A stretch of 64,000 nucleotides of DNA from a virus. Shown in pieces: positions 3,783 through 62,623 of this stretch. The DNA lies in IMG/VR virus record IMGVR_UViG_3300045988_119718, positions 1 through 64,000 of that record; one strand, 5' to 3'. The notes beneath the pieces were generated by a model. The model worked only from the letters and a program-made list of their open reading frames with translations, was not told the DNA's origin and ran no database searches. The position numbers and the translations under genes were made by a program. Every line of letters begins with the position of its first letter. Position 1 is the stretch's first letter.

Positions 3783-5954
3783 ATGGCAGCTCCAGATACT
3801 AAATTTATCTTTGATGACCAAACAGATATCAATCCTAATATAGGATTTGATAGTGATAATACCAATAGAGCAACATTCATGACTGTTTTTTCATCTGATA
3901 AAGGTCCAGAAACTTTACAAAAGAATTTATCTGGTAATGATTTTTTCGCCCTTTATGGTGACAACCCTAATTTCTTTAAACATGGTCAGCCTTTACTTCA
4001 GGCAGCTAAAATTGCTAATGCTGGCGGTTTACAATACTGCAAACGTGTTGTAGCTAAAGACTCTAAATTAGCTAATCTTGGTTTATTCGCTGTTGTTAGT
4101 GAAGATACTGTACAACAGACCGATTCTAAAGGTAGACCATTGTATTACACTACTAAAGAAGTAGAAGGCTATTGGAAGAAAGTTACTACTTCTTCTGATG
4201 TAAACTACACTCAAGGTAATAAATATTCTAAAGGTTCTATAGTAAAATACAATTCTCAGTATTATCAGGCATTAGTAGATGTAGATACTTCTAAAGAAGA
4301 ACAGAGAATTGATGCTACCTATAAAGATGTAACTACTATTAAACCGTCTACTGGTTCTGATCTTAATGATTTCCCAACAGTAAAAGCAGCTAAGATTAAG
4401 TATAAATTAGTTCCTCTTACTGATAGCCTTCAGACTAATAATACTAGTGATATTGGTTCTGTCATTGCTAAAGTTGAAAACTTTATGTATCTGAATAAGG
4501 ATAGCATTGTTCCCGTATCTAAAGGTGAAACAAGTTATTTGCTTTTAACCTTTACTGATACAGGTCGTGGTGTTTCTACTAAGAAGCTTAGATTCACTGC
4601 TGATACTACCACTAGAAGACCAGTATCTTATGTAAAGTATAAAGTAGAAGTTATGGAAAATAATTCTACTATTGAAACTCATTATGCTACATTTAATCCA
4701 TACATTGTAGAATCTTCTGATGGTACTATCGGTAACGCAAAAAATAAATCTTTTGATCAGGTAATTAATGGTAATTCTTCATACATTCGTTGTAAGTTCT
4801 ATGAAAGTGAATATAATGCTTTTGTAGATAAGGTTTCTTCTATTTCTTCTATTTCTAAAGATGAAATCTCGCATTGCGATATTCTCTTTAGCTATGATAG
4901 ATTTGGTAAGCCGATTAATACCATTGAAATTGATAAAAACTCTGATTCGTTAGATGCTATTAATGGCAATATTCTTCAGAATGGTTCTAATGGATCATTT
5001 GGTGAATACCCAATCACTTTACAGCCAAGAGTAGATGATGATGGTGCTACAACTGGGTTATCTCTCTATTATGAAGAAGTATTAGAAATATTCAATGGTA
5101 CATATTCTGATGACATCTATGATTTAGATAATACCAGAATTGATGTAATCTTTGATGCTAATTATCCTAAAGAAATTAAAGATGCTATTGCAAACTTAGT
5201 AAACTTTAGAGAAGACTGCTTCTATTTCAGAGATCTTGGGTTAAATCTTAATTCTATTCAAGAAATTGAATTAGCAGCAGAACAGTATTCCGATCATAAG
5301 TCTAAATTTATCGCAGACTATGCTAATAGTTTCTATGTTGAAGAACCTTACTATCGTAAACAAGTACAAGTTACTGTACCGTATTTACTTGTAGATAAGT
5401 TCGCTAAGCATTATATCAATGGTGTAAGTCGTCCATTCTGCGGTCAGAGATTTGGTATTACCTTTACTAATGAAATTATCGATGGTACTATTAACTTTAC
5501 TCCAAAGAGAACACCAAAGACTGATTCTAACATTCTTACCTATGACCAGAAGCAGTGGTTTGATGATAATAGAATCAACTATATCGCTTATTATGATGGT
5601 ATTCCGACCATGGATATTGAATATACCTCTCAGGAAAGATATACTCAGTTATCATGGCTTCATAATGTACTTCTTATCCAAGCTATGATGCATGATATTC
5701 GTAGGCAGTGTCCAAAGAGTAGATATGCATTTATTTATGATCAGGATTATGAATCATATAAAGCTGATATTGAAAAAGTAATTAATAATTATAATGGGTA
5801 CTTTAAGTCCATTAGTATCGAATTTGTAAAAGACGATCAGTATGAACTTAATAAGATCTTCTATGCAGTTATCAAAGTTAGCTTCAAAGACTTCATTCAG
5901 TCTGAAATCTTCAAGCTTACAATGATTAATTCGACTAGTAATGTAAGTAAGTAA
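3783..5954 (+). CDS. large virion-type protein (723 aa). Tail sheath or another major structural protein is possible from its size and the ~280-aa gene that follows, but this is not proven.
   Basis: strong SD AAAGGAGGATATATA-ATG; size and gene order (~720 aa followed by 283 aa) resemble sheath plus tube of large myoviruses; no diagnostic motif recognised. Confidence 0.3.
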   Translation: MAAPDTKFIFDDQTDINPNIGFDSDNTNRATFMTVFSSDKGPETLQKNLSGNDFFALYGDNPNFFKHGQPLLQAAKIANAGGLQYCKRVVAKDSKLANLGLFAVVSEDTVQQTDSKGRPLYYTTKEVEGYWKKVTTSSDVNYTQGNKYSKGSIVKYNSQYYQALVDVDTSKEEQRIDATYKDVTTIKPSTGSDLNDFPTVKAAKIKYKLVPLTDSLQTNNTSDIGSVIAKVENFMYLNKDSIVPVSKGETSYLLLTFTDTGRGVSTKKLRFTADTTTRRPVSYVKYKVEVMENNSTIETHYATFNPYIVESSDGTIGNAKNKSFDQVINGNSSYIRCKFYESEYNAFVDKVSSISSISKDEISHCDILFSYDRFGKPINTIEIDKNSDSLDAINGNILQNGSNGSFGEYPITLQPRVDDDGATTGLSLYYEEVLEIFNGTYSDDIYDLDNTRIDVIFDANYPKEIKDAIANLVNFREDCFYFRDLGLNLNSIQEIELAAEQYSDHKSKFIADYANSFYVEEPYYRKQVQVTVPYLLVDKFAKHYINGVSRPFCGQRFGITFTNEIIDGTINFTPKRTPKTDSNILTYDQKQWFDDNRINYIAYYDGIPTMDIEYTSQERYTQLSWLHNVLLIQAMMHDIRRQCPKSRYAFIYDQDYESYKADIEKVINNYNGYFKSISIEFVKDDQYELNKIFYAVIKVSFKDFIQSEIFKLTMINSTSNVSK

Positions 5955-5976
5955 TTAGAAAGGAGAAATAAATAGT

Positions 5977-6828
5977 ATGGCAGTTCATAATATTTATGAA
6001 GGTATGAAAGCTCCTAAAGACATTACTAGATATATGTTATCTAGAGGTGTTGTAGACTATTCTGACCTTTATCAGTTTGATAACTATGAAACAGGCTACA
6101 GTTTCTTAATTGTATTAAAGATTCCTGAATTTTTATCCAAACTTAAAGATTCTAACGATACATATAAAACTTTAATCAACGACTATACTCATATTCTTGA
6201 ATATGATTTCAAAGGATTAGATGGTCTTGATGATTTAACTATCGATACTAACTCTCTTAGTGATGGTATTAATGAAATTAATATTATTACTAAGACCAAT
6301 GAACAATCAGCTGGTTCATTTACTATGAGATTCTATGAACGTTCTGGTTCTATTATCACTAAAGTAAATGAATTATTTATTCGTGGTATTAAAGACCCAC
6401 GTACACAAGTTAAGAGATACAATGGATTAATTGATCCAATTAATAAATCTACTAGTGTAATTCAAGCTGGTTATGAAAACGAAACATTTGAATTCCTTTA
6501 TGGCGTATGTGATAATACTATGTCTAACATTGAAAAGGCATATCTTCTTGTTGCATGTCAGCCAACTTCTGCTGAAATGTCTATGTACAATTCTCAGAAG
6601 GGTGAAATTCAGTGGAGAGAACTTAACTATGCATTCAATGGTTATCCAATTACTGGTTCAGCTGTAACCAAGAGAGCACAAGAGTTCTTGGATTGGATTA
6701 ATAGTAGAACTGTATTTGAAGAATCTAGATTCGGTTATAAGTCTCTTAATAATATTCAATCCCCAAGTGAAAAGTCTACCAATCAGCCGACTTCTGCACT
6801 TGCTGATGGATATAACACTTTCTATTAA
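5977..6828 (+). CDS. hypothetical protein (283 aa); possible tail tube, from position only
   Basis: tightly follows the 723-aa gene; SD GAAAGGAGAAATAAATAGT-ATG. Confidence 0.25.
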   Translation: MAVHNIYEGMKAPKDITRYMLSRGVVDYSDLYQFDNYETGYSFLIVLKIPEFLSKLKDSNDTYKTLINDYTHILEYDFKGLDGLDDLTIDTNSLSDGINEINIITKTNEQSAGSFTMRFYERSGSIITKVNELFIRGIKDPRTQVKRYNGLIDPINKSTSVIQAGYENETFEFLYGVCDNTMSNIEKAYLLVACQPTSAEMSMYNSQKGEIQWRELNYAFNGYPITGSAVTKRAQEFLDWINSRTVFEESRFGYKSLNNIQSPSEKSTNQPTSALADGYNTFY

Positions 6829-6830
6829 TC

Positions 6831-6880
6831 AAAAAAAAAATAAATATATCAGTGTGGTATATACCACACTGATATATTTT
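6831..6880. repeat. conserved terminator/repeat element, copy A; homologous to the element at 9426-9482
   Basis: A10 run, then a perfect 30-bp palindrome ATATCAGTGTGGTATATACCACACTGATAT (6846-6875), then ATTTTATTCTCAT. Confidence 0.8.
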
Positions 6881-6891
6881 ATTCTCATGTA

Positions 6892-7547
6892 TTACTCATT
6901 AACTACTGTGTACTGAGAAGAAGACAATCCAGTCTTACTTTCAAAGTCAGCAGGAGGATTCTTAATCTTAACACCAGAAAGTTTAGTGCAATTATTAAAC
7001 ATATCCTTGAAATCATTGCAGGACTTCATATCGATTACACCTTTAATAGTAGTAAGATTAGAGCAGTTATTGAACATCCTCCACATCGTAATTACATTAG
7101 AGGTATCAAAATTGGATAAATCTAATGAAGTAAGTTTAGAGCATTCATTGAACATTACAAGCATTTCAGTTACATTAGAAGTATTGAAACTAGATAAATC
7201 TAGTGAAGTAAGAGAAGAGCATCCATAGAACATAAGAGACATATCTCTTACATTAGAAGTATTAAGGTTAGATACATCGAGTGAAGTAAGATTATGACAG
7301 TCCTGAAACATAGAATGCATATCGGTTGCTTTAGAAGTATCAAAGGTGGATAAATCTAATGAAATAAGATCAGAGCAGTCTTCAAACATCCATCTCATAT
7401 CAGTTACGTCTTTACATGTAACCTGATCAATTACAAATTTATCTGCTTTAGCGACTTTATCTTTTCTTTCCAGATATTATTATACCATGGGTTAGAAAGC
7501 TTATCACTTTTAGCTACAAATACCTGAGATTTAGACATAATTACTTC
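6892..7547 (-). pseudogene. decayed BspA-type LRR family paralog. The conserved N-terminal module (MSKSQVFVAKS..) sits in a short ORF at 7440-7547, out of frame with the LRR body (6892-7398, 168 aa).
   Basis: GGAGGAAGTAATT-ATG at 7547 gives MSKSQVFVAKSDKLSNPWYNN.., which stops after 35 codons; the LRR body is in another frame and lacks the ES-SGQATVT segment; the C-terminal module IKGVIDMKSC..GVKIKNPP..SQYTVV is intact. Confidence 0.55.
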
Positions 7548-7565
7548 CTCCTTTTTTAATATACT

Positions 7566-8651
7566 TTAAGATACCACTGTGTACTGAGATTTAGATAATC
7601 CGCTGATAGCTTCAAAATCCGATGGTGGATTCTTGATCTTAACACCAGAAAGATTAGAGCAATTCTTAAACATATTGAAGCAATCTTCACAAGATTTCAT
7701 ATCAATTACACCTTTAATAGTAGTAAGTTTCTCGCAATCACAGAACATCAAAGCCATACCAACTGCATTAGAAGTATCAAAGCTGGATAAATCTAACGTA
7801 GTAAGACTACGGCAACCAGCAAACATCCAATCTATAAAAATCGCATTAGAAGTATTAAAGCTAGATAAGTCTACTGAAGTGAGATTAGAGCAACCATTGA
7901 ACATAGAGTTCATACCAGTTACATTAGAAGTATCAAAGGTTGATAAATCTAATGTAGTAAGACAATAGCAGTCATGGAACATGGCGTTCATATTAGTTAC
8001 ATTGGACGTATCGAAACTGGATAAATCCAATCTAACAAGACGATCACAATTACCGAACATGCTACACATAGTCTCTACTTTAGAAGTATCAAAGTTGGAC
8101 ACATCTAATGAAGCAAGTCCATAACAATTATTGAACATACCACTCATATCCTGTACATTAGATGTATTAAACTCAGATAAATCTAATGTAATAAGACTAA
8201 AACAACTATCAAACATAAAACTCATATTCTTTACTTTAGATGTATTAAAACTGGATAAATCTAATTTAGCAAGACTAATGCAGTAATAGAACATTTTGCT
8301 CATATTAATTACATTAGAAGTAATAAAACTAGCAGGTATGTTCAATGTAGTAAGTTTATCACAATTAGCAAACATTTCACCCATATCTTCTACATTAGGT
8401 GTATAAAAACTGGATAAATCTAATTCAGTAAGATTATTGCACCATAAGAACATACCGTTCATATCTTTTACTTTAGATGTATCGAAATTCGATGATACAT
8501 CCAGTGAAGTAAGTTCATGACAATTATTGAACATCTGCCTCATACTAGTCATACCTTTATGATATTCTGGGATAAACCCTTTATGAAGAATCATCTGAGG
8601 TTTAGACATAATATAATTAACATCGAAATCATAATTGAGATTTTTAGGCAT
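7566..8651 (-). CDS. BspA-type leucine-rich-repeat protein, about 15 tandem repeats of 22-23 aa (LxSLDLSxFDTSNVxxMxxMF)
   Basis: AAGGAGAAGTAATT-ATG at 8651 (MPKNLNY..); repeat consensus visible along the whole protein; shared C-terminal module. Confidence 0.8.
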   Translation of the reverse strand: MPKNLNYDFDVNYIMSKPQMILHKGFIPEYHKGMTSMRQMFNNCHELTSLDVSSNFDTSKVKDMNGMFLWCNNLTELDLSSFYTPNVEDMGEMFANCDKLTTLNIPASFITSNVINMSKMFYYCISLAKLDLSSFNTSKVKNMSFMFDSCFSLITLDLSEFNTSNVQDMSGMFNNCYGLASLDVSNFDTSKVETMCSMFGNCDRLVRLDLSSFDTSNVTNMNAMFHDCYCLTTLDLSTFDTSNVTGMNSMFNGCSNLTSVDLSSFNTSNAIFIDWMFAGCRSLTTLDLSSFDTSNAVGMALMFCDCEKLTTIKGVIDMKSCEDCFNMFKNCSNLSGVKIKNPPSDFEAISGLSKSQYTVVS

Positions 8652-8681
8652 AATTACTTCTCCTTTTACCAAAAATATACT

Positions 8682-9323
8682 TTAAGATACTACTGTATAT
8701 TGCGATTTAGAAAGCCCACTAGCACTTTCAAAGTTAGTAGGAGGGTTCTTAATCTTAACACCTTTAAGGCTAGAGCAATCCCTGAACATATTCGTACAAT
8801 ATGTACAAGACTTCATATCGATAATACCTTTAATAGTAGCGAGGTTAGAACAGTTATAGAACATAGAATCCATATCAGTTACATTAGAAGTATCAAAGTT
8901 TGATAAGTCTAATTCTGCAAGATTCGTGCAATAAAAGAACATATGGCTCATATCAGTTACATTAGATGTATCAAAATCAGATAGATCCAGTGTAGTAAGG
9001 TTTCCACAATTAGCAAACATAGAGTCCATATCCTCTACTTCAGAAGTATCAAAATTCGATACATTCAATTCGGTAAGAGAGCAACAATAATAGAACAAAG
9101 CAGTCATATCTTCTACATTAGATGTATCAAAATTGGATAAATCTAATGTAGTGAGTTTATGGCAGCTATAGAACATAAAAGGCATATCAGTTAGAGCTTT
9201 ATTATAGGTAACTGTAGCTTGACCTGATACTGATTCATCTATATTAGCATGGTGCATATATATCCATGATGGATAAAACCATGGACTAAAACCTTTAGCT
9301 ACAAATACTTATTTTTTAGACAT
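8682..9323 (-). pseudogene. BspA-type LRR paralog whose conserved N-terminal module is interrupted by an in-frame TAA (MSKK*VFVAKGFSPWFY..). Alternatively expressed from Met at 9257 as an N-truncated 191-aa protein.
   Basis: ATG at 9323 and TAA at 9309-9311 are in the same frame as ORF 8682..9257; the paralogs read MSKSQVF / MSKEQVY / MSKPQM at the equivalent position. Confidence 0.55.
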
Positions 9324-9425
9324 AATAATTTCCCCTTTCTATAAATAAAAACTATTAATACGAGTATGTATATTACTCATATTAATAATATATAAGTAAT
9401 ATCGTATTTACTTATAATCCCTTCT

Positions 9426-9482
9426 ATTAAGTAAAAAAAAATAAAATATGTTAGTGTGGTATATACCACACTAACATATTTT
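9426..9482. repeat. conserved terminator/repeat element, copy B (30-bp perfect palindrome ATGTTAGTGTGGTATATACCACACTAACAT at 9448-9477)
   Basis: same A-run, 20-bp core AGTGTGGTATATACCACACT and ATTTTATCTCAT flank as copy A. Confidence 0.8.
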
Positions 9483-9688
9483 ATCTCATACATCCCATAA
9501 ATTGAATTAAATCTCGCTATCATATTGTCGTCTTAAACTTAAATGCTTAGCACCAGAATTGTATCCTCCATTGGAATCATCCTCCTTCCCCAGTAATAAC
9601 TGTAATAGATTATTATTAATTAAGATTATACAAGTATAAATATATATTTATACTCATACTAATAATATACAACTATTATTTTAAATAA

Positions 9689-12061
9689 TTACATTTCTTG
9701 ATTATCATTAGCACTAGCAGATTGGGTTAAAGCTAACTTAGCATCATCTAAGCACTTATCAATGAAACCTTCAGGAAATAATGATTCTACCATCTTTAAT
9801 CTTACCTGTCTAGCAAATTCATTCATTAAATCAGCATCATTATTTTCATTAACTACTGAAGCTGCTATACCCTGAGAGAGATCAGTTACGGATGACAGTA
9901 TCTGTGCAGTATTGGTAGCGTTTAAGTAAATAGGAGGTGGTAATACTACTACAATTTCATCAGACCTATTGTTATCCATATTGTATTCATAATTATAAAT
10001 CTTAGTTAATATCTTACTAAAGATCTTTTGGGTTTTACCTTGTCTATTATAGATCTTCTGTAGGAACTTAGTATTAGTCATGGTTAAGTGAGTAGCATAG
10101 TCTACCTGTTGTCTGGACTGAATAACTTCAAATGGTACATCAGTAGCATTTACTGCCATTTCTTCCAGCATATTCATTAAGTCATTCTTAATTTCTACCT
10201 GTTGCCCAGGTATTACTTCAAAGTCAATAGGAGAATCACCACTAGCAGATCTAGGGATAACTAAGTCATTAAATCTACCAAGCATATTAAGTACGTTAGA
10301 CATAGATTCAATCTGTCGTAATCCATAATTAGATTTTTGAATCTGGTTGATTACATTCATTAATACACCAGAAATATTAGTATCAACCGTTTGTCTTACA
10401 TAATATACTCTCTTATCAAAACCTCTAGTAAGGAATTGAATTACATTAGAGATATATAATGCAGAGAATAATTTAGCTGGGAATAATGATCTCATTAACC
10501 CAGATACACCACGTTTAGTCACAGGGTCTAAATCAAAGTATGAATGAACTATATCTTCTGGTGGAATAAATGTAACTGTAATCTTACTAATCTTACCACT
10601 AGCGTCTACAGTAGAATTATATTTAAGAATAGAATAGATTTCTTTAGTTAAGCCTTGATTAGCATTAACGAACTTAGCATCTATTTGCATGGAAATATTT
10701 CTAGCTATAGATTTAATAGCACCAAACTCATTGGAAGCATTACTATAATAATCGAATGTACTTCTAAATACTCCTCCTGGTCTAATACCACCAGTAGTAG
10801 ATGAGAAAGTATTTTTTTCAAAAGTCATTTTTTTATCACATTCTATATAGAAATATCCTAAGCAGATATCGTCAATATATAATGGTTTAACCATTTCATG
10901 GTCTAATGCTTTTACTACACATCCTGGTATTTTAAGCTTGCCAGTTACATTATCGGTACCATTCATTTGATTTAAATCATTAACCAATGTAACACCATTG
11001 GCAGCCATAGAATTAGCATCTTTTGCAGAATTGGCAAACGTATTAGTACTAGAACTCATTGAGTTAGAAATGCCTGTATCAGTTTTTTCATTAAAAAATA
11101 AAGATCCATTCTCTCTATAAGCTTTATACACATTAAATCTATCTCTTAATGCTGATTCAATAATTCTGGATTTATTAATCTCAATTCTTAATCCATCGCA
11201 GGAATCTGAAACCATATTATTAATAGATTTCATTTCATCGGTAGAATAATCTTTATCTTTAGAATATTCACTTACAGATTCTTGAATAATGGAGTTAAGA
11301 TTATCTAATTCTTCTGTATTAGCTTGAATTACATCGTGTACTGTAGATTCAATAAAACTGTCTACAGCTTCACTAGTCATTTGAGGAATATTATCCATAT
11401 TAGATATAGCCGTATTTCCTCTAGTTTTAAGTAATTGCTCTATAGCTTTTCTATATGGTACAATATAGATAAATGCTTCACCATACTTATCAGTAGGTCT
11501 ATATACTTTGTTCTCTAAGAAATCATCAATATTATATTTTTCTTTAAGAGTATTGATATTAGTAGCTATATGAGCGTCTGTTTCTTTATTAAACTCTTTA
11601 GCAGCTTTAATTACAATAGAATCTTTTGTAAAATGATCGGCTGATAATACATGTTCTCTTCTAGTGTCTAATGCATCATCAAGTTTAGGCATATATTTAC
11701 ATACCATATCAATTTCTCTGTCAATATCTCTTACTAATGTATTTTGAGTATAGATAGAGATAATATTATTCATAGTATTTCTATCAGATAAAGTATCATT
11801 AAGTTTAGATACTAAATCAGATGTTTTACCAGGTTTATTATTATTAATAATGGTTTTTTGATAAAGCATAGACATATTAGAATTACCAGTATTAGTCATA
11901 TTATTATTACTAATCTTCTGGATTATACCCTGAATATTATCTCTATTCTGCTTTAGTATATGATTTGTATCTCTAGGGTTAAGATATATATCGGCATATT
12001 GAGTATCAATAAGCTCGTTTATCTTATCCTTTAATTTAGAAAAATCTGAATTATTTGGCAT
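9689..12061 (-). CDS. hypothetical large protein (790 aa), possibly a virion or morphogenesis protein
   Basis: ORF track; no NTP-binding or polymerase motifs seen. Confidence 0.45.
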   Translation of the reverse strand: MPNNSDFSKLKDKINELIDTQYADIYLNPRDTNHILKQNRDNIQGIIQKISNNNMTNTGNSNMSMLYQKTIINNNKPGKTSDLVSKLNDTLSDRNTMNNIISIYTQNTLVRDIDREIDMVCKYMPKLDDALDTRREHVLSADHFTKDSIVIKAAKEFNKETDAHIATNINTLKEKYNIDDFLENKVYRPTDKYGEAFIYIVPYRKAIEQLLKTRGNTAISNMDNIPQMTSEAVDSFIESTVHDVIQANTEELDNLNSIIQESVSEYSKDKDYSTDEMKSINNMVSDSCDGLRIEINKSRIIESALRDRFNVYKAYRENGSLFFNEKTDTGISNSMSSSTNTFANSAKDANSMAANGVTLVNDLNQMNGTDNVTGKLKIPGCVVKALDHEMVKPLYIDDICLGYFYIECDKKMTFEKNTFSSTTGGIRPGGVFRSTFDYYSNASNEFGAIKSIARNISMQIDAKFVNANQGLTKEIYSILKYNSTVDASGKISKITVTFIPPEDIVHSYFDLDPVTKRGVSGLMRSLFPAKLFSALYISNVIQFLTRGFDKRVYYVRQTVDTNISGVLMNVINQIQKSNYGLRQIESMSNVLNMLGRFNDLVIPRSASGDSPIDFEVIPGQQVEIKNDLMNMLEEMAVNATDVPFEVIQSRQQVDYATHLTMTNTKFLQKIYNRQGKTQKIFSKILTKIYNYEYNMDNNRSDEIVVVLPPPIYLNATNTAQILSSVTDLSQGIAASVVNENNDADLMNEFARQVRLKMVESLFPEGFIDKCLDDAKLALTQSASANDNQEM

Positions 12062-12128
12062 TTATTATTCTCCTTTACAAAAAATAATTATTACCTTGAT
12101 GTCAAGGTAATAATTATGTAAGGTTTTA

Positions 12129-12836
12129 TTATAAAATATGAGTACGATATATAACTTTTATTTCTCCTATTTTCTTACGCTTAATAATAAACTCTAATAG
12201 TGCTGTATCATTAGTGCCAGAGAATAACTTGTAAACATTAAGATCTATAATATCAGACTTAACTGATTTTATAAATGTAGGAGGAATAAAATAAATAAAC
12301 CCATTATAGCCAAACTTCTTTATACCATCATCAGCTTTAGCAGATAATGCTCTATTAAATTCTTCTATTGTATTTTTAATATCTTCGTAGTGATACAATA
12401 ATTGGCTATTAGGAATTTCTTTATTGATTATCTTTTCATATCTTTTTTCGTATTTAAAATAATCAAAGCATAGTTTTAATTCTTTATCACACTTCATAGT
12501 CAATGCTATATCATTCTTACCCATAAAATTAGTAGTCTCTACTATAATATTATGCTTAGAAGATTCATTAGCGTTTAGTATAGCATTTAAATCTTTAGCA
12601 TAACATGCTATATTTGGGAAAGCTAAAGATAAATGCTTTACTTCATATTTACTATCAGGAATTAATACTTTTAATACATTGGCATCTTGATACTCTTGTG
12701 ATAACCCAAAGAATACACTTTTAGCTTTAGAATGAACTATGATATTAGATTTAAGCAATTTAGCTCTATCTAATAAAATTTCTAAATCACTTCTATTAGC
12801 TATTCGATTTATAACAGATGGTTGTTCTATTAGCAT
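12129..12836 (-). CDS. hypothetical protein (235 aa) directly downstream of the DNA polymerase; a sliding-clamp-sized accessory protein is speculative
   Basis: 4-nt overlap with the polymerase ORF; size similar to phage clamps; no motif evidence. Confidence 0.35.
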   Translation of the reverse strand: MLIEQPSVINRIANRSDLEILLDRAKLLKSNIIVHSKAKSVFFGLSQEYQDANVLKVLIPDSKYEVKHLSLAFPNIACYAKDLNAILNANESSKHNIIVETTNFMGKNDIALTMKCDKELKLCFDYFKYEKRYEKIINKEIPNSQLLYHYEDIKNTIEEFNRALSAKADDGIKKFGYNGFIYFIPPTFIKSVKSDIIDLNVYKLFSGTNDTALLEFIIKRKKIGEIKVIYRTHIL

Positions 12837-18317: not shown

Positions 18318-18359
18318 TTCTTTTTCCTCCTTATAAAAAATATATTTAATAAAATGTTA

Positions 18360-18388
18360 TAGTCTAGTCCTATATAGGACTAGACTAT
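18360..18388. terminator. intrinsic terminator hairpin
   Basis: TAGTCTAGTCCTATATAGGACTAGACTA palindrome between two minus-strand genes. Confidence 0.6.
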
Positions 18389-18400
18389 ACACTTCTATTA

Positions 18401-19122: not shown

Positions 19123-21819
19123 TTATTCAGACATGTCTTCTTCATAATTGTAAATAATGTTTCCATCTAATTGGATATTAGGGTCACTATTCTTAAGCAA
19201 TACAATATCCATATTAGCTAGATTCAATTCACTATTATGAGAAATCATAATACACTGACTACAATTCAAATAATTCATAAGAATGGATAATACATTGAAG
19301 AATGCTAATCTATTATTAGTATCTAGACCACCATCAATTTCATCCATCTTAATGATATTATATACACTACTAGATCTACTCATAAGAGCAAAACTAATAA
19401 TCATACTAATCATGCAGATTTGGCTTGTACTCATACTAGAAATATCATCATTAAGTATTCCATCACCTTTAACTGGGATTTTAAATTCTTTCTCATTGAT
19501 TACAAATGGCTGTAATACAAATGAACCACCAAAGAATTTAGACAGTAAGTTATTACTGATATCAATGATATCATTCATATACTTACCCATAAATACTGTT
19601 TGAATACCAGTTGTAGGAGAACAATAATACTTTATGGTTTCATATTTTTCGTATTCATCCTTATACTGATTATACTCATTTACATAGTTATTGTACAGCC
19701 TTATCTTAAAATTAGCATCATTAATAACGCTTGTTAATTTAGGAATTTGATTGCTAACTAAATCATCTAAAACATCTTTTTCGTTATTAAATTCTTTAGC
19801 TAATTCTTTAAACTCTTTATACTTACTATCATACTCTTTAATTTGTTTCATTTTAGGCTCAATTTCTTCTTTAATGAGTCTTTCGTATAAATCTTTCATC
19901 TCAATATTATGATTGATAATATCTAAAGTATCTTTAGCATTAGTAAATTTATTATTAAGCTCATCTAGTTTAATATTGATATTGTAAACTTCATCCTCAT
20001 GCTCTGATTTTTCTTTTTTAAGCTCTTCTATTTCTTTCGATAAATATTCTATCAAGTCTTTATTCGTAACCATAGAAGAATACTTTTCATTAAGAGAAGA
20101 TAAATTAGAATCGATATTATTCATTTCTATAATTATATTTTTGATTTCTTTAAGAACCGTTAAATCAATATTCATCCATTGAAGAATATCTCCATTACGA
20201 TAAACCATAATTATGAAACTATCTATATCTTCTTCAGGTAGCATAGCATTGAACTTCTTCAATATTGGAAGATAATTTTTGATATTATTGATAGCCTGAA
20301 TATAATCATCAGCACATTCAAATCCAAGTTTATCAATTCTAAGTTCTTTAGTATAATCACTAATATCTTTAGACATATCATCAATCTGTTTTACTAATTT
20401 ATCATAATCTTCATCCGATAATAAACTATTATACGCTTCAACCATAGCTTTTACAAATACACAATCAGATTTATGTGTACAATCTTTAGGAATATTTTCT
20501 ATACCTTTAGATTGTTTTCTATAAATATTTTGATTGTTTAATAAAAGCTTCATATTATTTAAAGCTTGTTTCATTTCATCAAGCTCTTCAGTTGTTTTGC
20601 TCTCTACCACAATATCATTGTAATATGCTTTAGTTATTTCCATAGCACGTTCAATAGCATTAGAATCATTATAAATCGTTTTAAGATTATCGAATGATTG
20701 AACTATTTGATTGCTAATATTTATGAATGTATCTATATCATAAATCTGATAATCAGTGCTATATCCTTTAACCTTGCATAAATTTTCTAATGCTTTTTTT
20801 CTTTTATCATAAGTGCTTATACGTTCTTTATATTGATTGATAAGATTAATATCACCATAGCTATTTAGTTTGATAGTATTATCATCTATCTTGCTATTGC
20901 ACTTAGCAATGCTTTTTCTTTCTCCTGCTATATTACAACGCAATGCAGTAATGTTTGTCTCTAATTCAGATACTTCTCTTTTCAAAAACTCTCGTTTTAC
21001 AGTATCGACCATTTTTTTATCATATTTATAATTCTCTAGCTTAGAATGCAATTTAGTAAGTTCACTAGTAGCTTTACCATATACTTCTTCTGGGTTTTCT
21101 TCACCAATCAGCATATTCATTTTAGTTTGCATACTAGATAAATCAGCGGTTAGTTTAATCTTCTGAACTTCTAAATCTCCTAATTGAGTATTCCATAATT
21201 TTATATTGGTGCTCAATGTTTTTATATCGCCAATATCTTTTATCTTTAGAGAAATAGAATTGACTAACGATTTCATTTGTGTAGATTTCTTAGATAACTT
21301 CTTATAGATTTCATTATACACATTTAACTCATTAATCTTTTTATTAATAAAATTCTTTCTTTGAGAAGGGGTCTTGTCTGCTAATCCTCTATCATCAGAA
21401 GATAATTGAGTTAATGGCAAAAAAGTAATATCAATATCAAGAATGTTACAGATGATATCTCTACCATCTGTAACATTATGATTTTGATTCATGAGATTAC
21501 CATTAACATAGACATAGCATTGTGTAGACTTTCGATTTCCCCTATCATCAACTGGGTAGATATATTTTACTTCTAGCGTTTCTCCATTATCTAGCTGATA
21601 CACTATATCCTTCATAGCTTCTAACCCATCTATCAGAAAATAGCTAGGGTCACTAAAAGGATGAATAGCTTTAAACAAACTAGATTTGCCAGAGCCATTA
21701 TCACCTTTGATTACGGTGATACTATTTCTGCATTTAGTAAAATCGATATGAATGGTATGCTTGTGCATACCATTATAAATACCTACATAGTTTTGTAGTG
21801 CTACACTATTTAATCTCAT
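19123..21819 (-). CDS. sbcC: SbcC/Rad50-family ATPase (SMC-like, long coiled coil)
   Basis: N-terminal Walker A GDNGSGKSSLFKAI; long Lys/Glu-rich coiled coil; C-terminal signature/D-loop (DEIDGGLD) and H-loop (ISHNSE). Confidence 0.8.
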   Translation of the reverse strand: MRLNSVALQNYVGIYNGMHKHTIHIDFTKCRNSITVIKGDNGSGKSSLFKAIHPFSDPSYFLIDGLEAMKDIVYQLDNGETLEVKYIYPVDDRGNRKSTQCYVYVNGNLMNQNHNVTDGRDIICNILDIDITFLPLTQLSSDDRGLADKTPSQRKNFINKKINELNVYNEIYKKLSKKSTQMKSLVNSISLKIKDIGDIKTLSTNIKLWNTQLGDLEVQKIKLTADLSSMQTKMNMLIGEENPEEVYGKATSELTKLHSKLENYKYDKKMVDTVKREFLKREVSELETNITALRCNIAGERKSIAKCNSKIDDNTIKLNSYGDINLINQYKERISTYDKRKKALENLCKVKGYSTDYQIYDIDTFINISNQIVQSFDNLKTIYNDSNAIERAMEITKAYYNDIVVESKTTEELDEMKQALNNMKLLLNNQNIYRKQSKGIENIPKDCTHKSDCVFVKAMVEAYNSLLSDEDYDKLVKQIDDMSKDISDYTKELRIDKLGFECADDYIQAINNIKNYLPILKKFNAMLPEEDIDSFIIMVYRNGDILQWMNIDLTVLKEIKNIIIEMNNIDSNLSSLNEKYSSMVTNKDLIEYLSKEIEELKKEKSEHEDEVYNINIKLDELNNKFTNAKDTLDIINHNIEMKDLYERLIKEEIEPKMKQIKEYDSKYKEFKELAKEFNNEKDVLDDLVSNQIPKLTSVINDANFKIRLYNNYVNEYNQYKDEYEKYETIKYYCSPTTGIQTVFMGKYMNDIIDISNNLLSKFFGGSFVLQPFVINEKEFKIPVKGDGILNDDISSMSTSQICMISMIISFALMSRSSSVYNIIKMDEIDGGLDTNNRLAFFNVLSILMNYLNCSQCIMISHNSELNLANMDIVLLKNSDPNIQLDGNIIYNYEEDMSE

Positions 21820-33056: not shown

Positions 33057-34589
33057 TTATTCTCTCTTATTTTTATTATTGCTATTATTCTCTAATTGTT
33101 TCTTGTTGCTTATCTTTTCTAATATCTTGATAAGCATTGTGTATATAGTAATGAACCGTTCAAGAATTATTTGATTCTCCACAAAACTTCTTGTATTAAA
33201 GGAATCTGTTAAAGAATCCTTTATCATCTCTCTTAGATCGGAAAGAGAATCATTTACATAGTTAAGTGTATCAACTATATTAGAATCTTTATTTACTACT
33301 GATAATCTCTCTAGTATACCAGTAATATCATTGAAAAGATCAATAAATTGTTGTTTTTGATTATTGGTTTTTATTCTTAATTGATCTTGTGTCAAATTAG
33401 AAAAGACATCTTGTTGTAATCCCTGAATTTCAGAATTAGCTTGAGAATCTCTAGAACCACCATCGTTCATTGTAGAATCATCAGTTGAATTTGCATCGTC
33501 TTGACCATCTGTTCCATCTTCTGAGCCATCCCCTGCATCATTATCTGTATCAGTATAGTCTTCACTAGCATCATCACCATCAGAACTACTGGTGTCGGCT
33601 GGTTGGTTTGGATTTCCTGTAGCTGCATCATTTTGTTCAGTATCATCATTAGGAGTATCCGACCTTACAGTATTGTTATTATCATCTATATTTGAATCTT
33701 GAGAATTATCAGTATCAGTATAATCTGCGGAATTATCATCATCTGATGAGGTATCTTGAACGTTTGTATCAGCCGCTGTATTACCATTACCATCATCATA
33801 ATCTTGCGTATAATCAGTACCTGTATCATCTGGTGTAGAAGTATCTACAGCATTTGCTGGTTCTTCAGTATCATTAGTATAATCCTCAGTATCATCTGAA
33901 GTAGAAGTATCTGCTACATCACTATTATCTGTATCCGCAGTATAATCTTCTTCTGACCCAGAATCATCACCGTTATCAGCAGTATCTACGACCTCTTCTG
34001 GTTCTTCAGTATCGCCAGTATAATCATCTTCTGTATTATCATCTGATGAAGTATCCTGTACTTCTGTATCGGTTTCTTCAGGTTCATCATCAGTAGGAGT
34101 ATCATCTGTATCATTAGTATAGTCTTCTTCTGTATCCGTATCATCATCAGATTCAGAAGCATCACTATCTACTTCTTCTGGCTCATTATCTTCTTCAGGT
34201 TCATCTTCATATTCAGTATAATCATCAGTATCATTATCGTCAGCAGTATCTACTACTTCAGTTGGTTCTTCATCTTTCTTTTTATCAGCCTCTAAGATTA
34301 CATTCATATTATTAGTAAAATCGCCATAGTAAGATTCATTTAAGGTTTTATATACTTCAGAATCTTCACTTACTTCAACATTAAATTTCTTAGCAGCTTT
34401 CATTATATTTCTAGCTAATTCTTTTTTCTTATTTTTATCACAATGATTAAAATAAGCCATAGCAGAACGTACATGGTTAGCATCGTTTAATGGATATTTC
34501 TTTTCAGATGGTAATCCGTAAATAGATGCTGGCAATTCTTTTCTATCTTTAGTAGATAATTTTTCTTCATTATAAATATTAATCATCAT
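33057..34589 (-). CDS. polyacidic tandem-repeat protein (510 aa) with about 7 copies of (E/D)DYT-DT(D/E) embedded in D/E/T/S-rich low complexity
   Basis: central ~330 aa such as DDTDTEEDYTNDTDDTPTDDEPEETDTEVQDTSSDDNTEDDYTGDTEEPEE..; N- and C-terminal ordered segments. Confidence 0.6.
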   Translation of the reverse strand: MMINIYNEEKLSTKDRKELPASIYGLPSEKKYPLNDANHVRSAMAYFNHCDKNKKKELARNIMKAAKKFNVEVSEDSEVYKTLNESYYGDFTNNMNVILEADKKKDEEPTEVVDTADDNDTDDYTEYEDEPEEDNEPEEVDSDASESDDDTDTEEDYTNDTDDTPTDDEPEETDTEVQDTSSDDNTEDDYTGDTEEPEEVVDTADNGDDSGSEEDYTADTDNSDVADTSTSDDTEDYTNDTEEPANAVDTSTPDDTGTDYTQDYDDGNGNTAADTNVQDTSSDDDNSADYTDTDNSQDSNIDDNNNTVRSDTPNDDTEQNDAATGNPNQPADTSSSDGDDASEDYTDTDNDAGDGSEDGTDGQDDANSTDDSTMNDGGSRDSQANSEIQGLQQDVFSNLTQDQLRIKTNNQKQQFIDLFNDITGILERLSVVNKDSNIVDTLNYVNDSLSDLREMIKDSLTDSFNTRSFVENQIILERFITIYTMLIKILEKISNKKQLENNSNNKNKRE

Positions 34590-36837: not shown

Positions 36838-36912
36838 TTATAAAATATTCTCCTTTCTTTAAAACCGATTAAAAATTACTATAAAGTTCTAAAAAATAAA
36901 TAGCAAAAAATA

Positions 36913-36942
36913 ATAGAGTAGCACATATGTGCTACTCTATTA
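36913..36942. terminator. intrinsic terminator hairpin
   Basis: AATAGAGTAGCACATATGTGCTACTCTATT palindrome with flanking A/T runs. Confidence 0.6.
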
Positions 36943-36953
36943 TTACTTTTTTT

Positions 36954-54000: not shown

Positions 54001-54040
54001 GTATATAACATCTAGCTTATATAAGCTAGATGTTATATAC
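54001..54040. promoter_or_regulatory. perfect 40-bp palindrome in a divergent promoter region; candidate operator
   Basis: GTATATAACATCTAGCTTATATAAGCTAGATGTTATATAC, ~30 bp upstream of the start at 54072; an additional inverted repeat AGTGAAGACA(28 nt)TGTCTTCACT lies at 53928-53975. Confidence 0.5.
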
Positions 54041-61132: not shown

Positions 61133-61393
61133 TTATTGTTTATAGTCACAAATTCTACATGGCATAGATATAATATCTGCTGGGGTAGCATTGACATCTA
61201 ATACCATGAATGCATAATCATTATTAGAATTTTTATTTTTATCAATAAAAATTTTTCTAATTTGATCCATACTAAGTAACTTGCTATTAATTTTAAAACT
61301 TTTAACAAGTTTATAGTATTTCTCTTTAGCATTATATTTAAATTCGGCAAGACGCTTATCGCAATCCTGCTCAAAAATAATATTATTAAGCAT
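61133..61393 (-). CDS. small Cys-containing protein, paralog 3 of a tandem family (..DYAFMVLDV..CRICDYKQ)
   Basis: shared motifs with 61733..62008 and 62190..62465. Confidence 0.5.
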   Translation of the reverse strand: MLNNIIFEQDCDKRLAEFKYNAKEKYYKLVKSFKINSKLLSMDQIRKIFIDKNKNSNNDYAFMVLDVNATPADIISMPCRICDYKQ

Positions 61394-61545
61394 GCATATT
61401 CACCTCCATTATGATAGTCTTATCTAAATCTACTAGATAGGGCTAGATTAAATATAAACCTAAAGATTCATATTCATAGGTATAATATACAATTTAAAAA
61501 ATACTCCATACCAATATTGGTATGGAGTATAATAAAAAAAAATAA

Positions 61546-61699
61546 AAGCTTAAGAAGCAAAAGACTAAACTCGACTTGTTTAATCTATACTTCTTAAGCA
61601 ATAGCAAATGAATAGGTATTAATGTTTAGCAATTAAAGTAGCACAAAAATATTTTGATTGATTAAGAAAATAACTGTAAAGCTAAACTACCTATTCATA
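61546..61699. ncRNA. candidate structured RNA or regulatory element in a 340-bp intergenic region
   Basis: 10-bp perfect inverted repeat GCTTAAGAAG..CTTCTTAAGC (61546-61600); nested stems ATGAATAGGTA..TACCTATTCAT (11 bp) and GTTTAGC..GCTAAAC (61601-61699); terminator hairpin TACTCCATACCAATATTGGTATGGAGTA at 61501-61528. Confidence 0.3.
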
Positions 61700-61732
61700 T
61701 AAATAATATATAATTATTAATTTTATTATCCA

Positions 61733-62008
61733 TCAACACAATAGTGAGGGATTTAGATTATACTGCTTTCGTTTTGCACGATCACATATTCGCATGCCTG
61801 TATAAATTTCTTGGCATGGCTTATCCGTCACATTGAGTATAGAATATGCAAAGTCATTATTAAATGATTTATTCATTCTAATAAAGCTGTCTTTTATGGA
61901 TTTCATATTCTCTTTTGACGGATTAATGATATACTCGTCAATAAAATGATAGCACTCGTCTTTATCATTGTAAACAAATCTAACGAGTTTTTTAAGATGA
62001 TTATTCAT
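61733..62008 (-). CDS. small Cys-containing protein, paralog 2 (..NDFAYSILNV..RICDRAK)
   Basis: paralog family; conserved upstream palindrome. Confidence 0.5.
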   Translation of the reverse strand: MNNHLKKLVRFVYNDKDECYHFIDEYIINPSKENMKSIKDSFIRMNKSFNNDFAYSILNVTDKPCQEIYTGMRICDRAKRKQYNLNPSLLC

Positions 62009-62122
62009 AATTGAATTCCTCCTATCATCCTTCCAATAGTTGCCTCTATTGGAAGGATAAATAAAAATATTTTAATGGATTAATTATCCATAGTTATAAT
62101 ATATAATTTAAACAATATTTAT

Positions 62123-62146
62123 CTAGTACCTCATATAAGGTACTAG
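62123..62146. promoter_or_regulatory. 24-bp palindrome (1 mismatch) upstream of paralog 2; candidate operator or terminator
   Basis: CTAGTACCTCATATAAGGTACTAG followed by the conserved ATAAACTTTTGATTTA(A/G)G(T/G)AGGTGTATGAA(T/C)AACTAA. Confidence 0.45.
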
Positions 62147-62189
62147 ATAAACTTTTGATTTAAGTAGGTGTATGAATAACTAATATTAT

Positions 62190-62465
62190 TTATTTCTTTG
62201 ATATAAAATGTTTATCTTTACGATCACAAATTCTAGTTTTAGTATAGATTCTATTCTTAGGAATATCATGTATACCTATTAAACTAAATGCAAAATCATT
62301 ATTATTTTTATTTAATCTAATGAATTCATCACGTATCGATTGTATTGGAGTTAGATTTAAATCAACTATAAAGTTTTCTACTAAATGATAGCACTTATTG
62401 TCATCATCATAATGATATTTTGCTAACCGTTTTAAATTAGAAAAATTTGTTAAATTATTTGTCAT
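62190..62465 (-). CDS. small Cys-containing protein, paralog 1 (..NDFAFSLIGI..RICDRKD)
   Basis: paralog family; SD AAAGGAGGAATTTATT-ATG. Confidence 0.5.
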   Translation of the reverse strand: MTNNLTNFSNLKRLAKYHYDDDNKCYHLVENFIVDLNLTPIQSIRDEFIRLNKNNNDFAFSLIGIHDIPKNRIYTKTRICDRKDKHFISKK

Positions 62466-62557
62466 AATAAATTCCTCCTTTTATCTTTTCAAATATAGAG
62501 ATAATAAAATATTTGATTTACTCATAAATATATTATATAACTGAAAAAGTGTATTAT

Positions 62558-62581
62558 CCAGTACCTCATATGAGGTACTGG
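62558..62581. promoter_or_regulatory. perfect 24-bp palindrome CCAGTACCTCATATGAGGTACTGG upstream of paralog 1 and just downstream of the dUTPase gene
   Basis: second copy of the ~60-bp conserved element. Confidence 0.5.
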
Positions 62582-62623
62582 ATAAACTTTTGATTTAGGA
62601 GGTGTATGAACAACTAAATATAT

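Follow-up and report, generated by a model that had tools for sequence, protein, structure and literature searches.

A probable moron-like cassette array of DUF285-type LRR genes between the tail-tube and portal genes of an AR9-related jumbo phage

In an AR9-related jumbo phage, the stretch which separates the tail-tube gene from the portal gene probably carries a hyperplastic, moron-like cassette array which works in a PeSL-like manner. As a recombination hot spot, the array belongs to a type described before for T4-like phages, since PeSL (promoter-early stem-loop) cassettes were reported from hyperplastic regions of T4-type genomes (Arbiol et al. 2010, PMC2839356; Comeau et al. 2014, PMC4122927). 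The array was analyzed in a DNA stretch of 64,000 nucleotides (hereafter the window) from an uncultured gut-metagenome phage, which by its sequence is of the AR9-related jumbo type with about 250 kb. It has the look of a virulent jumbo phage, carries a gene for an RNA polymerase beta-like subunit and presumably relies on RNA polymerases of its own. On the minus strand of the window, DUF285/BspA-type LRR genes stand in a tandem row of three (6892-9323), with the tail-tube gene to their left and the portal gene to their right.

5977-6828, plus strand: tail-tube gene, left flank of the array (283 aa; Pfam PF23806 Phage_TTP_14, E = 1.9e-10)
6892-7538, minus strand: LRR1, DUF285 paralog (about 215 aa) whose frame is broken by a 1-nt deletion near 7457-7462
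7566-8651, minus strand: LRR2, intact, 361-aa DUF285 LRR protein with about twelve 26-residue repeats
8682-9323, minus strand: LRR3, DUF285 paralog (about 213 aa) in which codon 5 is an in-frame TAA
9689-12061, minus strand: portal gene, right flank of the array (790 aa; phrog_3004)

Profile scans covered about 30 ORFs of the window. The portal protein showed its best matches with AR9/PBS1, Staphylococcus and Fusobacterium jumbo phages, and shares 27% identity with the AR9/PBS1 portal proteins (tblastn, E = 2e-50). A megablast search with positions 5000-12500 gave zero matches in the GenBank phage collection. The G+C content of the LRR block is 0.317, compared to 0.30-0.32 in the flanking genes, and its GC3 is moderately higher (0.27-0.30 vs 0.19-0.22). 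The presence of three tandem BspA-type LRR paralogs between direct repeats, noticed in an earlier sequence-only reading, was confirmed; apart from these genes the block holds about 115 nt of non-coding DNA, located upstream of them (9324-9439).

Membership in PF03382 was defined as a score of the 26-residue repeat profile above the Pfam gathering score (cut-off 25), and LRR1 (E = 3e-34, 117.8 bits), LRR2 (E = 8e-76, 252 bits) and LRR3 (E = 3e-31, 108.3 bits) all exceed it. LRR2 is predicted to fold as an LRR solenoid. Its AlphaFold2 model (pLDDT 89.2) possesses a regular short strand every ~26 residues, and its Foldseek matches in the PDB were LRR proteins throughout, with 4FS7 (BACOVA_04585) as the best. 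The family is marked by a specific N-terminal segment (MSKxQVFVAKG..PWY) and by a cap at the C-terminus (IKGVIDMKSC...GVKIKNPP...SQYTVV). Reading of the LRR termini by eye revealed neither a signal peptide nor a lipobox or wall anchor; the N-termini (MSKSQVFVAKS..., MPKNLNYDFD... and MSKK...) are without a hydrophobic h-region or lipobox, and the C-termini finish in ...SQYTVVS. With LRR2 as query, long bacterial BspA proteins in their thousands dominated the homolog search, which gave no information on the phage-specific family. A further member of the family was found elsewhere in the window.

36954-39221, minus strand: second LRR locus, encoding a 755-aa protein (PF03382, 211 bits)

The first two parts of this protein (aa 1-244 and 251-463) are each a complete LRR paralog unit, joined in one reading frame; after them comes a domain of ~290 aa for which the homology search found no relatives.

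Of the three LRR genes, two have a disrupted 5' end, namely LRR1 and LRR3. LRR1 reads GAAAAGATAAAG at the frameshift site and its paralog LRR350, found in the relative L024, reads GAAAAGAATAAAG; the frameshift splits LRR1 into an ORF of 35 aa (7431-7538) and one of 168 aa (6892-7398), and is common to five independent assemblies. The 3' tail of LRR1, from 6892 to ~6955, is derived from LRR350. In LRR3, the longest ORF starting with ATG spans 8682-9257 (191 aa). Programmed -1 frameshifting at A_AAG was considered for LRR1 and rejected as the main reading, as the comparison with LRR350 shows a plain 1-nt loss outside any slippery heptamer. Recoding of TAA was rejected for LRR3, as the large ORFs of the window read well under the standard code. 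A search of IMG/VR with DNA patterns spanning the defects retrieved no intact alleles of LRR1 or LRR3.

The LRR genes are framed by direct repeats with palindromic hairpins, and promoter-like motifs are placed next to the right copy.

6811-6882, no strand assigned: left copy of the direct repeat, 72 nt (tail-tube 3' end, A10 run and hairpin)
6842-6879, minus strand: hairpin T-left, perfect palindrome of 38 bp (terminator scan; covariation)
9374-9392, minus strand: promoter-like motif P', TATATTATTAATATGAGTA, in the LRR3 upstream region (51-69 nt before the start codon)
9413-9484, no strand assigned: right copy of the direct repeat, 72 nt, in which 18 nt of the tail-tube 3' end survive as a remnant, TATAATCCCTTCTATTAA
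9441-9484, minus strand: hairpin T-right, perfect palindrome of 44 bp (terminator scan; RNA fold)
9539-9571, minus strand: conserved micro-ORF MEDTILVLSI, 10 codons, with a GGAGG ribosome-binding site, between P and T-right
9651-9669, minus strand: resident promoter-like motif P, TATATTATTAGTATGAGTA, a paralog of P', just 3' of the portal stop codon

The repeats had been described as ~60 bp long with an identical 20-bp core. The core, AGTGTGGTATATACCACACT, occurs in exactly two copies in the window (6851 and 9453), even when 3 mismatches are allowed, with 0 expected by chance, but the repeats proved longer, with 72 nt at 85% identity (6811-6882 vs 9413-9484), and the left copy starts within the final 18 nt of the tail-tube CDS. 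Similarly, the palindromes are perfect and share the core as claimed, but measure 38 and 44 bp instead of 30. The A-run and the ATTTTAT(T/C)CTCAT flank were found in both repeats. The tail-tube 3' end, over 18-40 nt, is repeated in every terminator-promoter module, including the internal copies in relatives (junction alignment).

T-left folds as RNA with -25.8 kcal/mol (z = -8.5) and T-right with -29.2 kcal/mol (z = -9.2), and fold energies across the copies range from -23 to -29 kcal/mol. Pairing is kept at 98% over 11 copies with compensatory double changes at 8 of the 19 pairs; no shuffle equals this covariation and slid controls collapse. From its sequence, T-left resembles an intrinsic terminator placed to serve the LRR operon, with the U-tract on the minus strand, and it probably also terminates the convergent sheath/tube transcript. 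T-right reads as a terminator-like element for the transcript of portal and micro-ORF. A terminator role fits with the position, U-tracts, stability and covariation of the hairpins, of which the covariation is no proof of a role in RNA, since palindrome symmetry can also be maintained at the DNA level, for example by template switching. Terminator hairpins are a common class in this genome, with ~25 long perfect palindromes in 64 kb. Unlike this general class, the sequence of the 72-nt repeat is confined to the LRR locus, so the occurrence at many unrelated loci which would have spoken against the earlier reading was not seen. A degenerate hairpin pattern retrieved nothing from IMG/VR beyond two contigs already known, and an Rfam scan gave only sub-threshold matches to generic hairpins.

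Alignment of upstream regions showed that a P'-type motif is kept upstream of all LRR units in the relatives and of the micro-ORF, which is retained at the empty site as well. The extended motif is enriched, with 9 sites against 2.0 expected, a number which no shuffle reached; of these sites, 7 lie between genes on the coding strand. The plain TATATTAT-N6-[GA] pattern is not above chance in AT-rich DNA (22 found vs 19 expected). The early promoters of Bacillus phage AR9 follow the consensus AAATATATATTAT-N6-G (Lavysh et al. 2017, PMC5312081). The motif of the LRR operon, CTTATATATTAT-TAATAT-G, agrees with AAATATATATTAT-(6N)-G in 11 of the 13 consensus positions and has the same distance to the G. 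By this comparison it resembles an early (virion RNA polymerase) promoter and not a late structural one, the class being assigned by resemblance to a phage with which the portal shares only 27% identity. A motif similar to that of the LRR operon is located 58 nt upstream of the start codon of the RNA polymerase beta-like gene. Upstream of the structural genes, AACA-N6-TA, the late consensus of AR9, was not clearly present. A sigma-70 scan of 5000-12500 found 34 sites vs 51 expected, with 0 in 9330-9440.

A hairpin followed by the TATATTAT-N6-G motif was found at 9485-9374, 62585-62519 and 62151-62085 and in the internal modules of relatives. Elsewhere in the window this punctuation uses unrelated hairpin sequences. 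Three small paralogs at 61133-62465 are likewise punctuated by a hairpin plus the motif.

Comparison of related genomes for presence, absence and copy number, as the sequence-only reading had suggested, revealed a highly variable block, the LRR gene number among close relatives being 0, 2, 3 (in two layouts) or 5; the invariance which would have refuted the earlier reading was thus not observed. The site is empty with one hairpin in L002/L016. Two LRR genes are present in L011, L012 and L013, in which the tail tube has 100% and the portal ~99% amino-acid identity. L001 has three genes and an extra internal hairpin, and L024/L026/L027 have five. The more distant relatives L004 and L009 have no LRR genes at the site. 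Every non-empty relative retains at least two intact LRR genes. Compared with L013, the window is 97-100% identical and drops to 70-75% inside the block only.

Two recombination events were mapped, both known as end states in which gain and loss are not distinguishable by direction. Between L014 and L001 exactly one unit of 1,174 bp is missing in the former, with breakpoints in the hairpin repeat. The window differs from L024 by a single indel of 1.93 kb, with flanks 99.9-100% identical on both sides and the junction in the conserved C-terminal module of two paralogs.

6956-6972, minus strand: crossover interval of the 1.93-kb indel, a 17-nt identity GTTAAGATTAAGAATCC encoding (G)VKIKNP (three-way junction alignment)

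Cassette gain and loss, as proposed earlier, is thus borne out by the variability of the block among relatives, one unit-sized indel having its breakpoints in the hairpin repeat. The 1.93-kb indel of the window used the homology of the C-terminal modules and not the bracketing repeats. An origin of the window as a recombinant of L013-like and L024-like genomes was rejected; with 99.9-100% identity to L024 on either side, the window needs no more than a simple intragenomic indel. The empty site may be the ancestral state rather than a deletion. Mosaic LRR alleles were seen between L012 and L013. Within the window, the ~80% nucleotide identity reported for the N- and C-terminal modules of the paralogs holds approximately for the C-terminal modules at the coordinates given there (74-80%), but the N-terminal ones are alike over the first ~35 nt only. 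Of the gene conversion which the architecture was suggested to allow, no recent tract was detected among the three window paralogs (longest exact match 23-25 nt, ~72% identity).

According to the proposed mechanism, each transcription unit would start with a promoter-like motif (TATATTAT-N6-G), contain between one and four LRR genes and close with a long hairpin, a perfect palindrome followed by a U-tract. The hairpin and motif of a unit would be paralogous copies of the resident pair which frames the micro-ORF downstream of the portal. The extra hairpin copies retain 18-40 nt of the tail-tube 3' end, suggesting that new units arose by duplications ending inside the tail-tube gene. Three substrates of recombination are envisaged, namely the terminator-promoter modules, the conserved C-terminal LRR module and the 78-bp LRR repeats. 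Exchange between hairpin copies leads to gain or loss of whole units, as shown by L001 vs L014, and would account for the empty site of L002 as well. Exchange between the C-terminal modules of paralogs deletes or inserts genes and produces chimeras, as shown for the window, which corresponds to the five-gene haplotype minus 1.93 kb. Exchange within the LRR repeats would give mosaic alleles of the kind seen in L012 vs L013. The hairpins are most likely transcription terminators which insulate the units from the convergent late tail operon. The intact LRR proteins are presumably functional yet fast-evolving.

A more far-reaching possibility, which we regard as unlikely, is that the locus takes part in an arms race, with the LRR proteins acting as early intracellular effectors (binders or decoys for host defence or takeover targets) that are diversified by the in-built expandable architecture of the array. 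Under such a scheme, the palindrome terminators would serve as insulators and, being prone to breakage, also as sites of recombination, perhaps with processing by the SbcC-like nuclease of the phage. The conserved C-terminal module would be a universal splice point for the exchange of LRR bodies, and the 5'-disrupted copies would be retained as a sequence reservoir.

Plain decay is a rather improbable explanation. It would treat the LRR genes as dispensable passengers lost by random deletion and the repeats as duplicated ordinary terminators with no role in turnover. The 5' disruption of two of the three window genes, the descent of the window by deletion from a five-gene haplotype, the existence of an empty site and the abundance of terminator hairpins are all in line with it, and given the two disrupted genes part of the array may simply be decaying. 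Against decay, intact alleles are under purifying selection, with dN/dS of 0.23-0.46 for LRR alleles compared to 0-0.09 for the tail-tube and portal genes (0.19 in one tail-tube pair), and at least two intact genes persist in every non-empty relative. Moreover, both mapped breakpoints fall in repeated sequence and not at random, and deletion alone is insufficient for haplotypes which carry different, diverged genes and extra units.

Programmed variation, in which LRR2 is expressed and LRR1 and LRR3 serve as silent conversion donors or are activated by frameshifting or read-through, is very improbable. One intact gene accompanied by two 5'-disrupted paralogs with otherwise open frames would suit this scheme, as would the identical disruptions in several independent assemblies and the mosaic alleles of relatives. 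However, the assemblies sharing the disruptions are nearly clonal (flanks 99.9-100% identical), so these are shared by descent, and the genes of the relatives are all intact. The disrupted copies also retain ribosome-binding sites and start codons and share an operon with LRR2, and the window paralogs show no conversion tracts. The frameshift is a 1-nt loss from GAAAAGAATAAAG to GAAAAGATAAAG outside a simple-sequence tract. In a simple-sequence contingency locus, the length of a homopolymer or short tandem repeat in the promoter or 5' coding region would set the reading frame, and no long tract was found at the frameshift site. The defect of LRR3 is a stop codon, and by direct reading a change of one A in either direction in its A6 run yields other stops. 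A diversity-generating retroelement (DGR) would be recognized by a template/variable repeat pair of ~100 nt or more differing at adenines, together with a reverse transcriptase. No DGR-like repeat pair was found; the only direct repeats of >80% identity in the window are the 72-nt terminator repeat and a 44-nt hairpin repeat (62119-62162/62554-62597, 93%), and the divergence of the LRR genes extends over their whole length. The earlier analogy with contingency or host-range loci is unsupported, there being no simple-sequence switch and the upstream motif resembling an early promoter.

An integron-type system, in which a dedicated recombinase would recognize the palindromes as attC-like folded single strands and move the LRR cassettes, can hardly be credited: hairpin-forming repeats of 40-70 nt do bracket cassettes, unit-sized indels do break in the hairpin and an excised unit would form a circle, but attC sites are imperfect palindromes serving promoterless cassettes beside an integrase, whereas by direct reading the palindromes here are perfect and lack attC extrahelical bases and R/L core boxes, each unit is provided with a promoter-like motif, the block and its direct neighbours (tail-tube and portal) include no recombinase gene, the window indel relied on coding-sequence homology, and the hairpin-plus-motif punctuation recurs elsewhere with unrelated hairpin sequences.

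An array with PeSL-like working, which we favor, shares several features with the T4-type cassettes. In both, short composite terminator-plus-promoter modules recur between non-essential genes and bound indels or replacements between close relatives (here L014 vs L001 and L002/L016), recombination of neighbouring modules adds or removes whole gene units, and the modules are occasionally located inside conserved virion modules beside unusually plastic genes. The differences are that the phage here is AR9-like with a multisubunit RNA polymerase and not a T4-type myovirus, that an AR9 virion-polymerase-like motif replaces the strong sigma-70-like early promoter, and that the stems are long perfect AT-rich palindromes instead of G/C-tract stems. 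In addition, the extra modules here bear a remnant of the neighbouring tail-tube gene, and the cargo is one paralogous LRR family whose own conserved modules recombine too.

Morons, which occur in lambdoid and other tailed phages, usually consist of one gene with expression from the prophage, and often have a distinct base composition. The units described here share with them an autonomous promoter/terminator organization, as judged from sequence, between two structural genes, and the absence from some relatives. They differ in that the G+C of the LRR block equals that of its flanks, and the units are tandemly amplified paralogs in a phage which looks virulent and jumbo-type. With bacterial BspA/DUF285 proteins the phage proteins share the 26-residue repeat (PF03382, up to E = 8e-76) and a predicted solenoid nearest to 4FS7. 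The bacterial proteins are long surface adhesins, whereas the phage proteins are short (~190-360 aa), show no surface signals by eye and possess the family-specific N-terminal segment and C-terminal cap. The BspA/DUF285 family further includes multi-copy groups of large phages and giant viruses. LRR proteins annotated as BspA are also found in many Myoviridae metagenome genomes, in Aeromonas phage D3, Klebsiella phage N1M2 and Vibrio phage pir03, and in Aureococcus virus.

The locus carries the concept of mobile regulatory cassettes from T4-like phages over to an AR9-like jumbo phage of the gut. It offers an unusually clean record of the growth and shrinkage of an array, with haplotypes of identical flanks and a single recombination event mapped to 17 nt, and in each added unit the remnant of the tail-tube 3' end is a molecular fossil. 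A fast-evolving LRR family emerges as the main variable cargo of this phage clade. Its proteins are probably protein-binding modules made early in infection, and as they are without export signals and probably early, they are a concrete candidate for studies of phage-host interaction.

The LRR region of this phage lies between the tail-tube and portal genes, and its features, together with two further loci with paralogous sequences, are as follows.

3783-5954, plus strand: tail-sheath gene, flanking the LRR region before the tail tube
5977-6828, plus strand: tail-tube gene (PF23806), left flank
6811-6882 and 9413-9484: 72-nt direct repeat, the two copies 85% identical
6892-7538, minus strand: LRR1 (PF03382, E = 3e-34)
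7566-8651, minus strand: LRR2 (PF03382, E = 8e-76)
8682-9323, minus strand: LRR3 (PF03382, E = 3e-31)
9539-9571, minus strand: micro-ORF of 10 codons (MEDTILVLSI; ribosome-binding site GGAGG), which follows the portal gene and ends at the right hairpin
9689-12061, minus strand: portal gene (790 aa), right flank
36954-39221, minus strand: second LRR locus, a 755-aa protein
61133-61393, 61733-62008 and 62190-62465, minus strand: second tandem paralog array (86, 91 and 91 aa)

The portal protein showed 27% identity to the portals of Bacillus phages AR9 and PBS1. Among the other products of the window (G+C 29.5%) are a family-B DNA polymerase, an RNA polymerase beta-like subunit, a GroEL-like protein, a major head protein and an SbcC-like nuclease, and a 252,690-bp ENA metagenome contig is 99.99% identical to the window. 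The phage is therefore a jumbo myophage, uncultured and a distant relation of the AR9 group. The tail sheath was found to be 1026 aa in 67%-identity relatives (L004 6880-9960) and 723 aa in the window; a block of repeated ~45-aa segments (…KFYKAKVAHKPLMKEVPD…) inside the protein accounts for the added length and forms a variable insertion domain of the sheath.

LRR1, LRR2 and LRR3 are of the DUF285/BspA type, and each is made of 78-bp (26-residue) repeats between an N-terminal segment specific to the family and a C-terminal cap that is conserved (IKGVIDMKSC...GVKIKNPP...SQYTVV). Of the three, LRR2 alone is intact. In LRR1, 1 nt is missing (GAAAAGATAAAG against GAAAAGAATAAAG in LRR350, the 350-aa paralog of a five-gene haplotype), which splits the gene into two ORFs of 35 and 168 aa, while codon 5 of LRR3 is TAA. 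LRR2 was modelled as a regular LRR solenoid (AlphaFold2, pLDDT 89); its nearest solved structure is 4FS7, and it is also similar to many viral proteins that carry a BspA-family annotation. Recent gene conversion, a process that the architecture had been suggested to allow, has left no sign in this genome, since paralogs within the window are ~72-74% identical and their exact matches reach 35 nt at most. In the 755-aa protein, two complete LRR units lie in frame (aa 1-244 and 251-463) before a ~290-aa C-terminal domain, which gave no Pfam or PHROG match and no relatives in IMG/VR.

The sequence-only reading of a tandem LRR block bracketed by repeats was borne out by the three PF03382 genes and the 72-nt repeats, whose 20-bp core AGTGTGGTATATACCACACT is confined to 6851 and 9453 (window searched with three mismatches allowed; chance expectation 0). 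Each copy contains a perfect palindrome, of 38 bp on the left and 44 bp on the right, preceded on the plus strand by an A-run that becomes a U-tract in minus-strand transcripts. Both scored as intrinsic-terminator-like on the minus strand in a terminator scan, with fold energies of -26 and -29 kcal/mol (left, right; z about -9). On its left side the repeat starts with the final 18 nt of the tail-tube coding sequence, so the right copy holds a fossil of the tail-tube gene end; matching copies in relatives retain up to ~40 nt of it. About 25 further long perfect palindromes in the window are intergenic and have their own cores (for example 607-644, 12084-12117, 18358-18389, 36909-36944 and 54001-54040; stems 11-22 bp, many without spacer). 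As a class, hairpin terminators are thus nothing unusual in this window, but the left and right hairpins are true paralogs. An SbcC-like palindrome-nuclease subunit is encoded at 19123-21819 in the same window as these palindromes.

Among 11 distinct hairpin copies, 98% of cells pair and both sides have changed in 8 of 19 pairs. These values were reached by 0 of 500 shuffles, and pairing fell to 25-57% when the partner was slid by 1-3 columns; the structure is therefore maintained. Selection for an RNA terminator or upkeep of symmetry at the DNA level could be the cause, and the data fit either. A link of the palindromes to breakage and recombination is a speculation.

Occupancy of the site was compared at 13 informative loci, obtained by tail-tube protein search (IMG/VR and metagenome contigs) and by retrieving contigs that code for an identical LRR2 protein.

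Occupancy of the tube-portal site in relatives (tail-tube identity in brackets)
L002, L016 (95% aa): empty site, with tube, one hairpin (core AGTGCAG...CTGCACT), micro-ORF, motif and portal
L011, L013 (100% aa): two genes, 192 and 317 aa
L012 (100% aa): two genes, 192 and 265 aa, the second a mosaic whose central repeat block differs
Window, L025 (identical): three genes
L001 (96% aa): three different genes, the first of 340 aa, followed by an internal hairpin plus motif and by genes of 215 and 270 aa
L024, L026, L027 (DNA 100% identical over 5901-6828): five genes, in the order LRR3, LRR2, LRR1, 213-aa gene, internal hairpin (core AGTACAG...CTGTACT) and motif, LRR350
L004 (67% aa) and L009 (59% aa): LRR genes absent from this site

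The block is thus variable among relatives, with empty, two-, three- and five-gene states. Between the window and L013, identity is 97-100% up to ~6940 and from ~9561 and 70-75% across the block. The window and the five-gene haplotype have flanks 99.9-100% identical on both sides and are separated by one 1.93-kb indel; the window lacks the 213-aa gene, the module of internal hairpin and motif, and most of LRR350. Three-way alignment mapped the junction to 17 identical nt, GTTAAGATTAAGAATCC (window 6956-6972), coding (G)VKIKNP of the C-terminal cap, and window LRR1 is hence a chimera in which an LRR1 body ends in the final 17 codons of LRR350. In L011-L013, the first gene joins the same LRR350-type tail to a body nearest to the 213-aa gene (88% over 414 nt), which suggests repeated use of the same splice point. 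L014 and L001 are collinear up to the end of the tail-tube gene, beyond which the hairpin of L014 is followed directly by the 215-type gene (95% to L001 12025-12781); L014 thus lacks the 1,174-bp unit between two L001 hairpin copies. This difference is an indel of unit size whose breakpoints lie in the hairpin repeat. If the two hairpin copies of the window underwent exchange, the outcome would be exactly the empty-site layout of L002, which fits as either ancestral or derived. The suggested cassette architecture, in which units can be gained or lost and the hairpins serve also as terminators, therefore holds against the comparison of relatives, but the event mapped in the window used paralog homology and not the bracketing repeats.

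A promoter-like motif kept in all relatives, TTATATATTAT-TAATAT-G-AGTA, lies in the window at 9392-9374 (minus strand), 51-69 nt ahead of the operon's first gene, and a paralogous copy directly after the portal stop codon (9669-9651, minus strand) precedes the micro-ORF. The extended motif, TTATATATTAT-N4-(T/A)ATG(A/G), which is specific to this phage, was found 9 times against 2.0 expected (9392, 9669, 25094, 43047, 47928, 53050, 61489, 61710 and 62103), always on the minus strand and 7 times intergenic, with one copy preceding the RNA polymerase beta-like gene (45465-47870). Besides its likeness to AR9 early promoters, it includes the TATG of phiKZ late promoters. Sigma-70-type sites showed no enrichment in a scan of 5000-12500. 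The block motif fits the experimentally defined consensus of AR9 virion RNA polymerase early promoters, AAATATATATTAT-(6N)-G(+1) (PMC5312081), a likeness by sequence to a distant phage. We infer that each unit comprises promoter, gene(s) and terminator, and LRR units are probably expressed early. The micro-ORF, with its own promoter-like motif, is kept in L001 (MEDTILVLGA), L002 (MEDTILVFNI) and L011-L013, and could represent either a genuine micro-gene or a leader peptide.

In the second array (61133-62597), all three small paralogs are preceded by a TATATTAT-N6-G motif, and two of them by near-identical hairpins (62119-62162 and 62554-62597; 93%, with compensatory changes). Elsewhere, a 47-nt repeat (1636-1682 and 2280-2326, 79% identical) spans the 5' ends and ribosome-binding sites of adjacent minus-strand genes 1178-1654 and 1756-2337, which may be another tandem paralog pair. 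Degenerate direct repeats of ~51 nt lie at 33690-34300 within the minus-strand ORF 33057-34589.

Integron-like, DGR-like, simple-sequence contingency and silent-cassette readings of the LRR array were tested and unsupported, and the earlier analogy to host-range or contingency loci likewise gained no support. The locus agrees with the definition of a moron except in base composition. The nearest described mechanism is the PeSL system of T4-type phages, composite stem-loop-plus-promoter cassettes repeated in hyperplastic regions, whose recombination yields indels and replacements that tell near-identical phages apart (PMC2839356, PMC4122927). The LRR locus works in the same way without being a family member. 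Unlike a PeSL region, it has a promoter part that does not resemble sigma-70 promoters, sits in a phage outside the T4 type, has long and perfect AT-rich palindromes as its stem-loops, and carries as cargo a single paralogous family with its own conserved module as a second recombination substrate.

The G+C of the block equals that of its flanks, with GC3 moderately higher in the block. The LRR family is a long-time resident of this phage clade. For allelic LRR pairs dN/dS came to 0.23-0.46, whereas tail tube and portal in the same genome pairs gave 0-0.09, with one pair at 0.19; intact LRR genes are therefore functional, yet evolve several-fold faster than the tail-tube and portal genes. Since the promoter motif is AR9-early-like and the LRR proteins are without export signals, our preferred but tentative guess is that these proteins may act as early intracellular protein-binding effectors.
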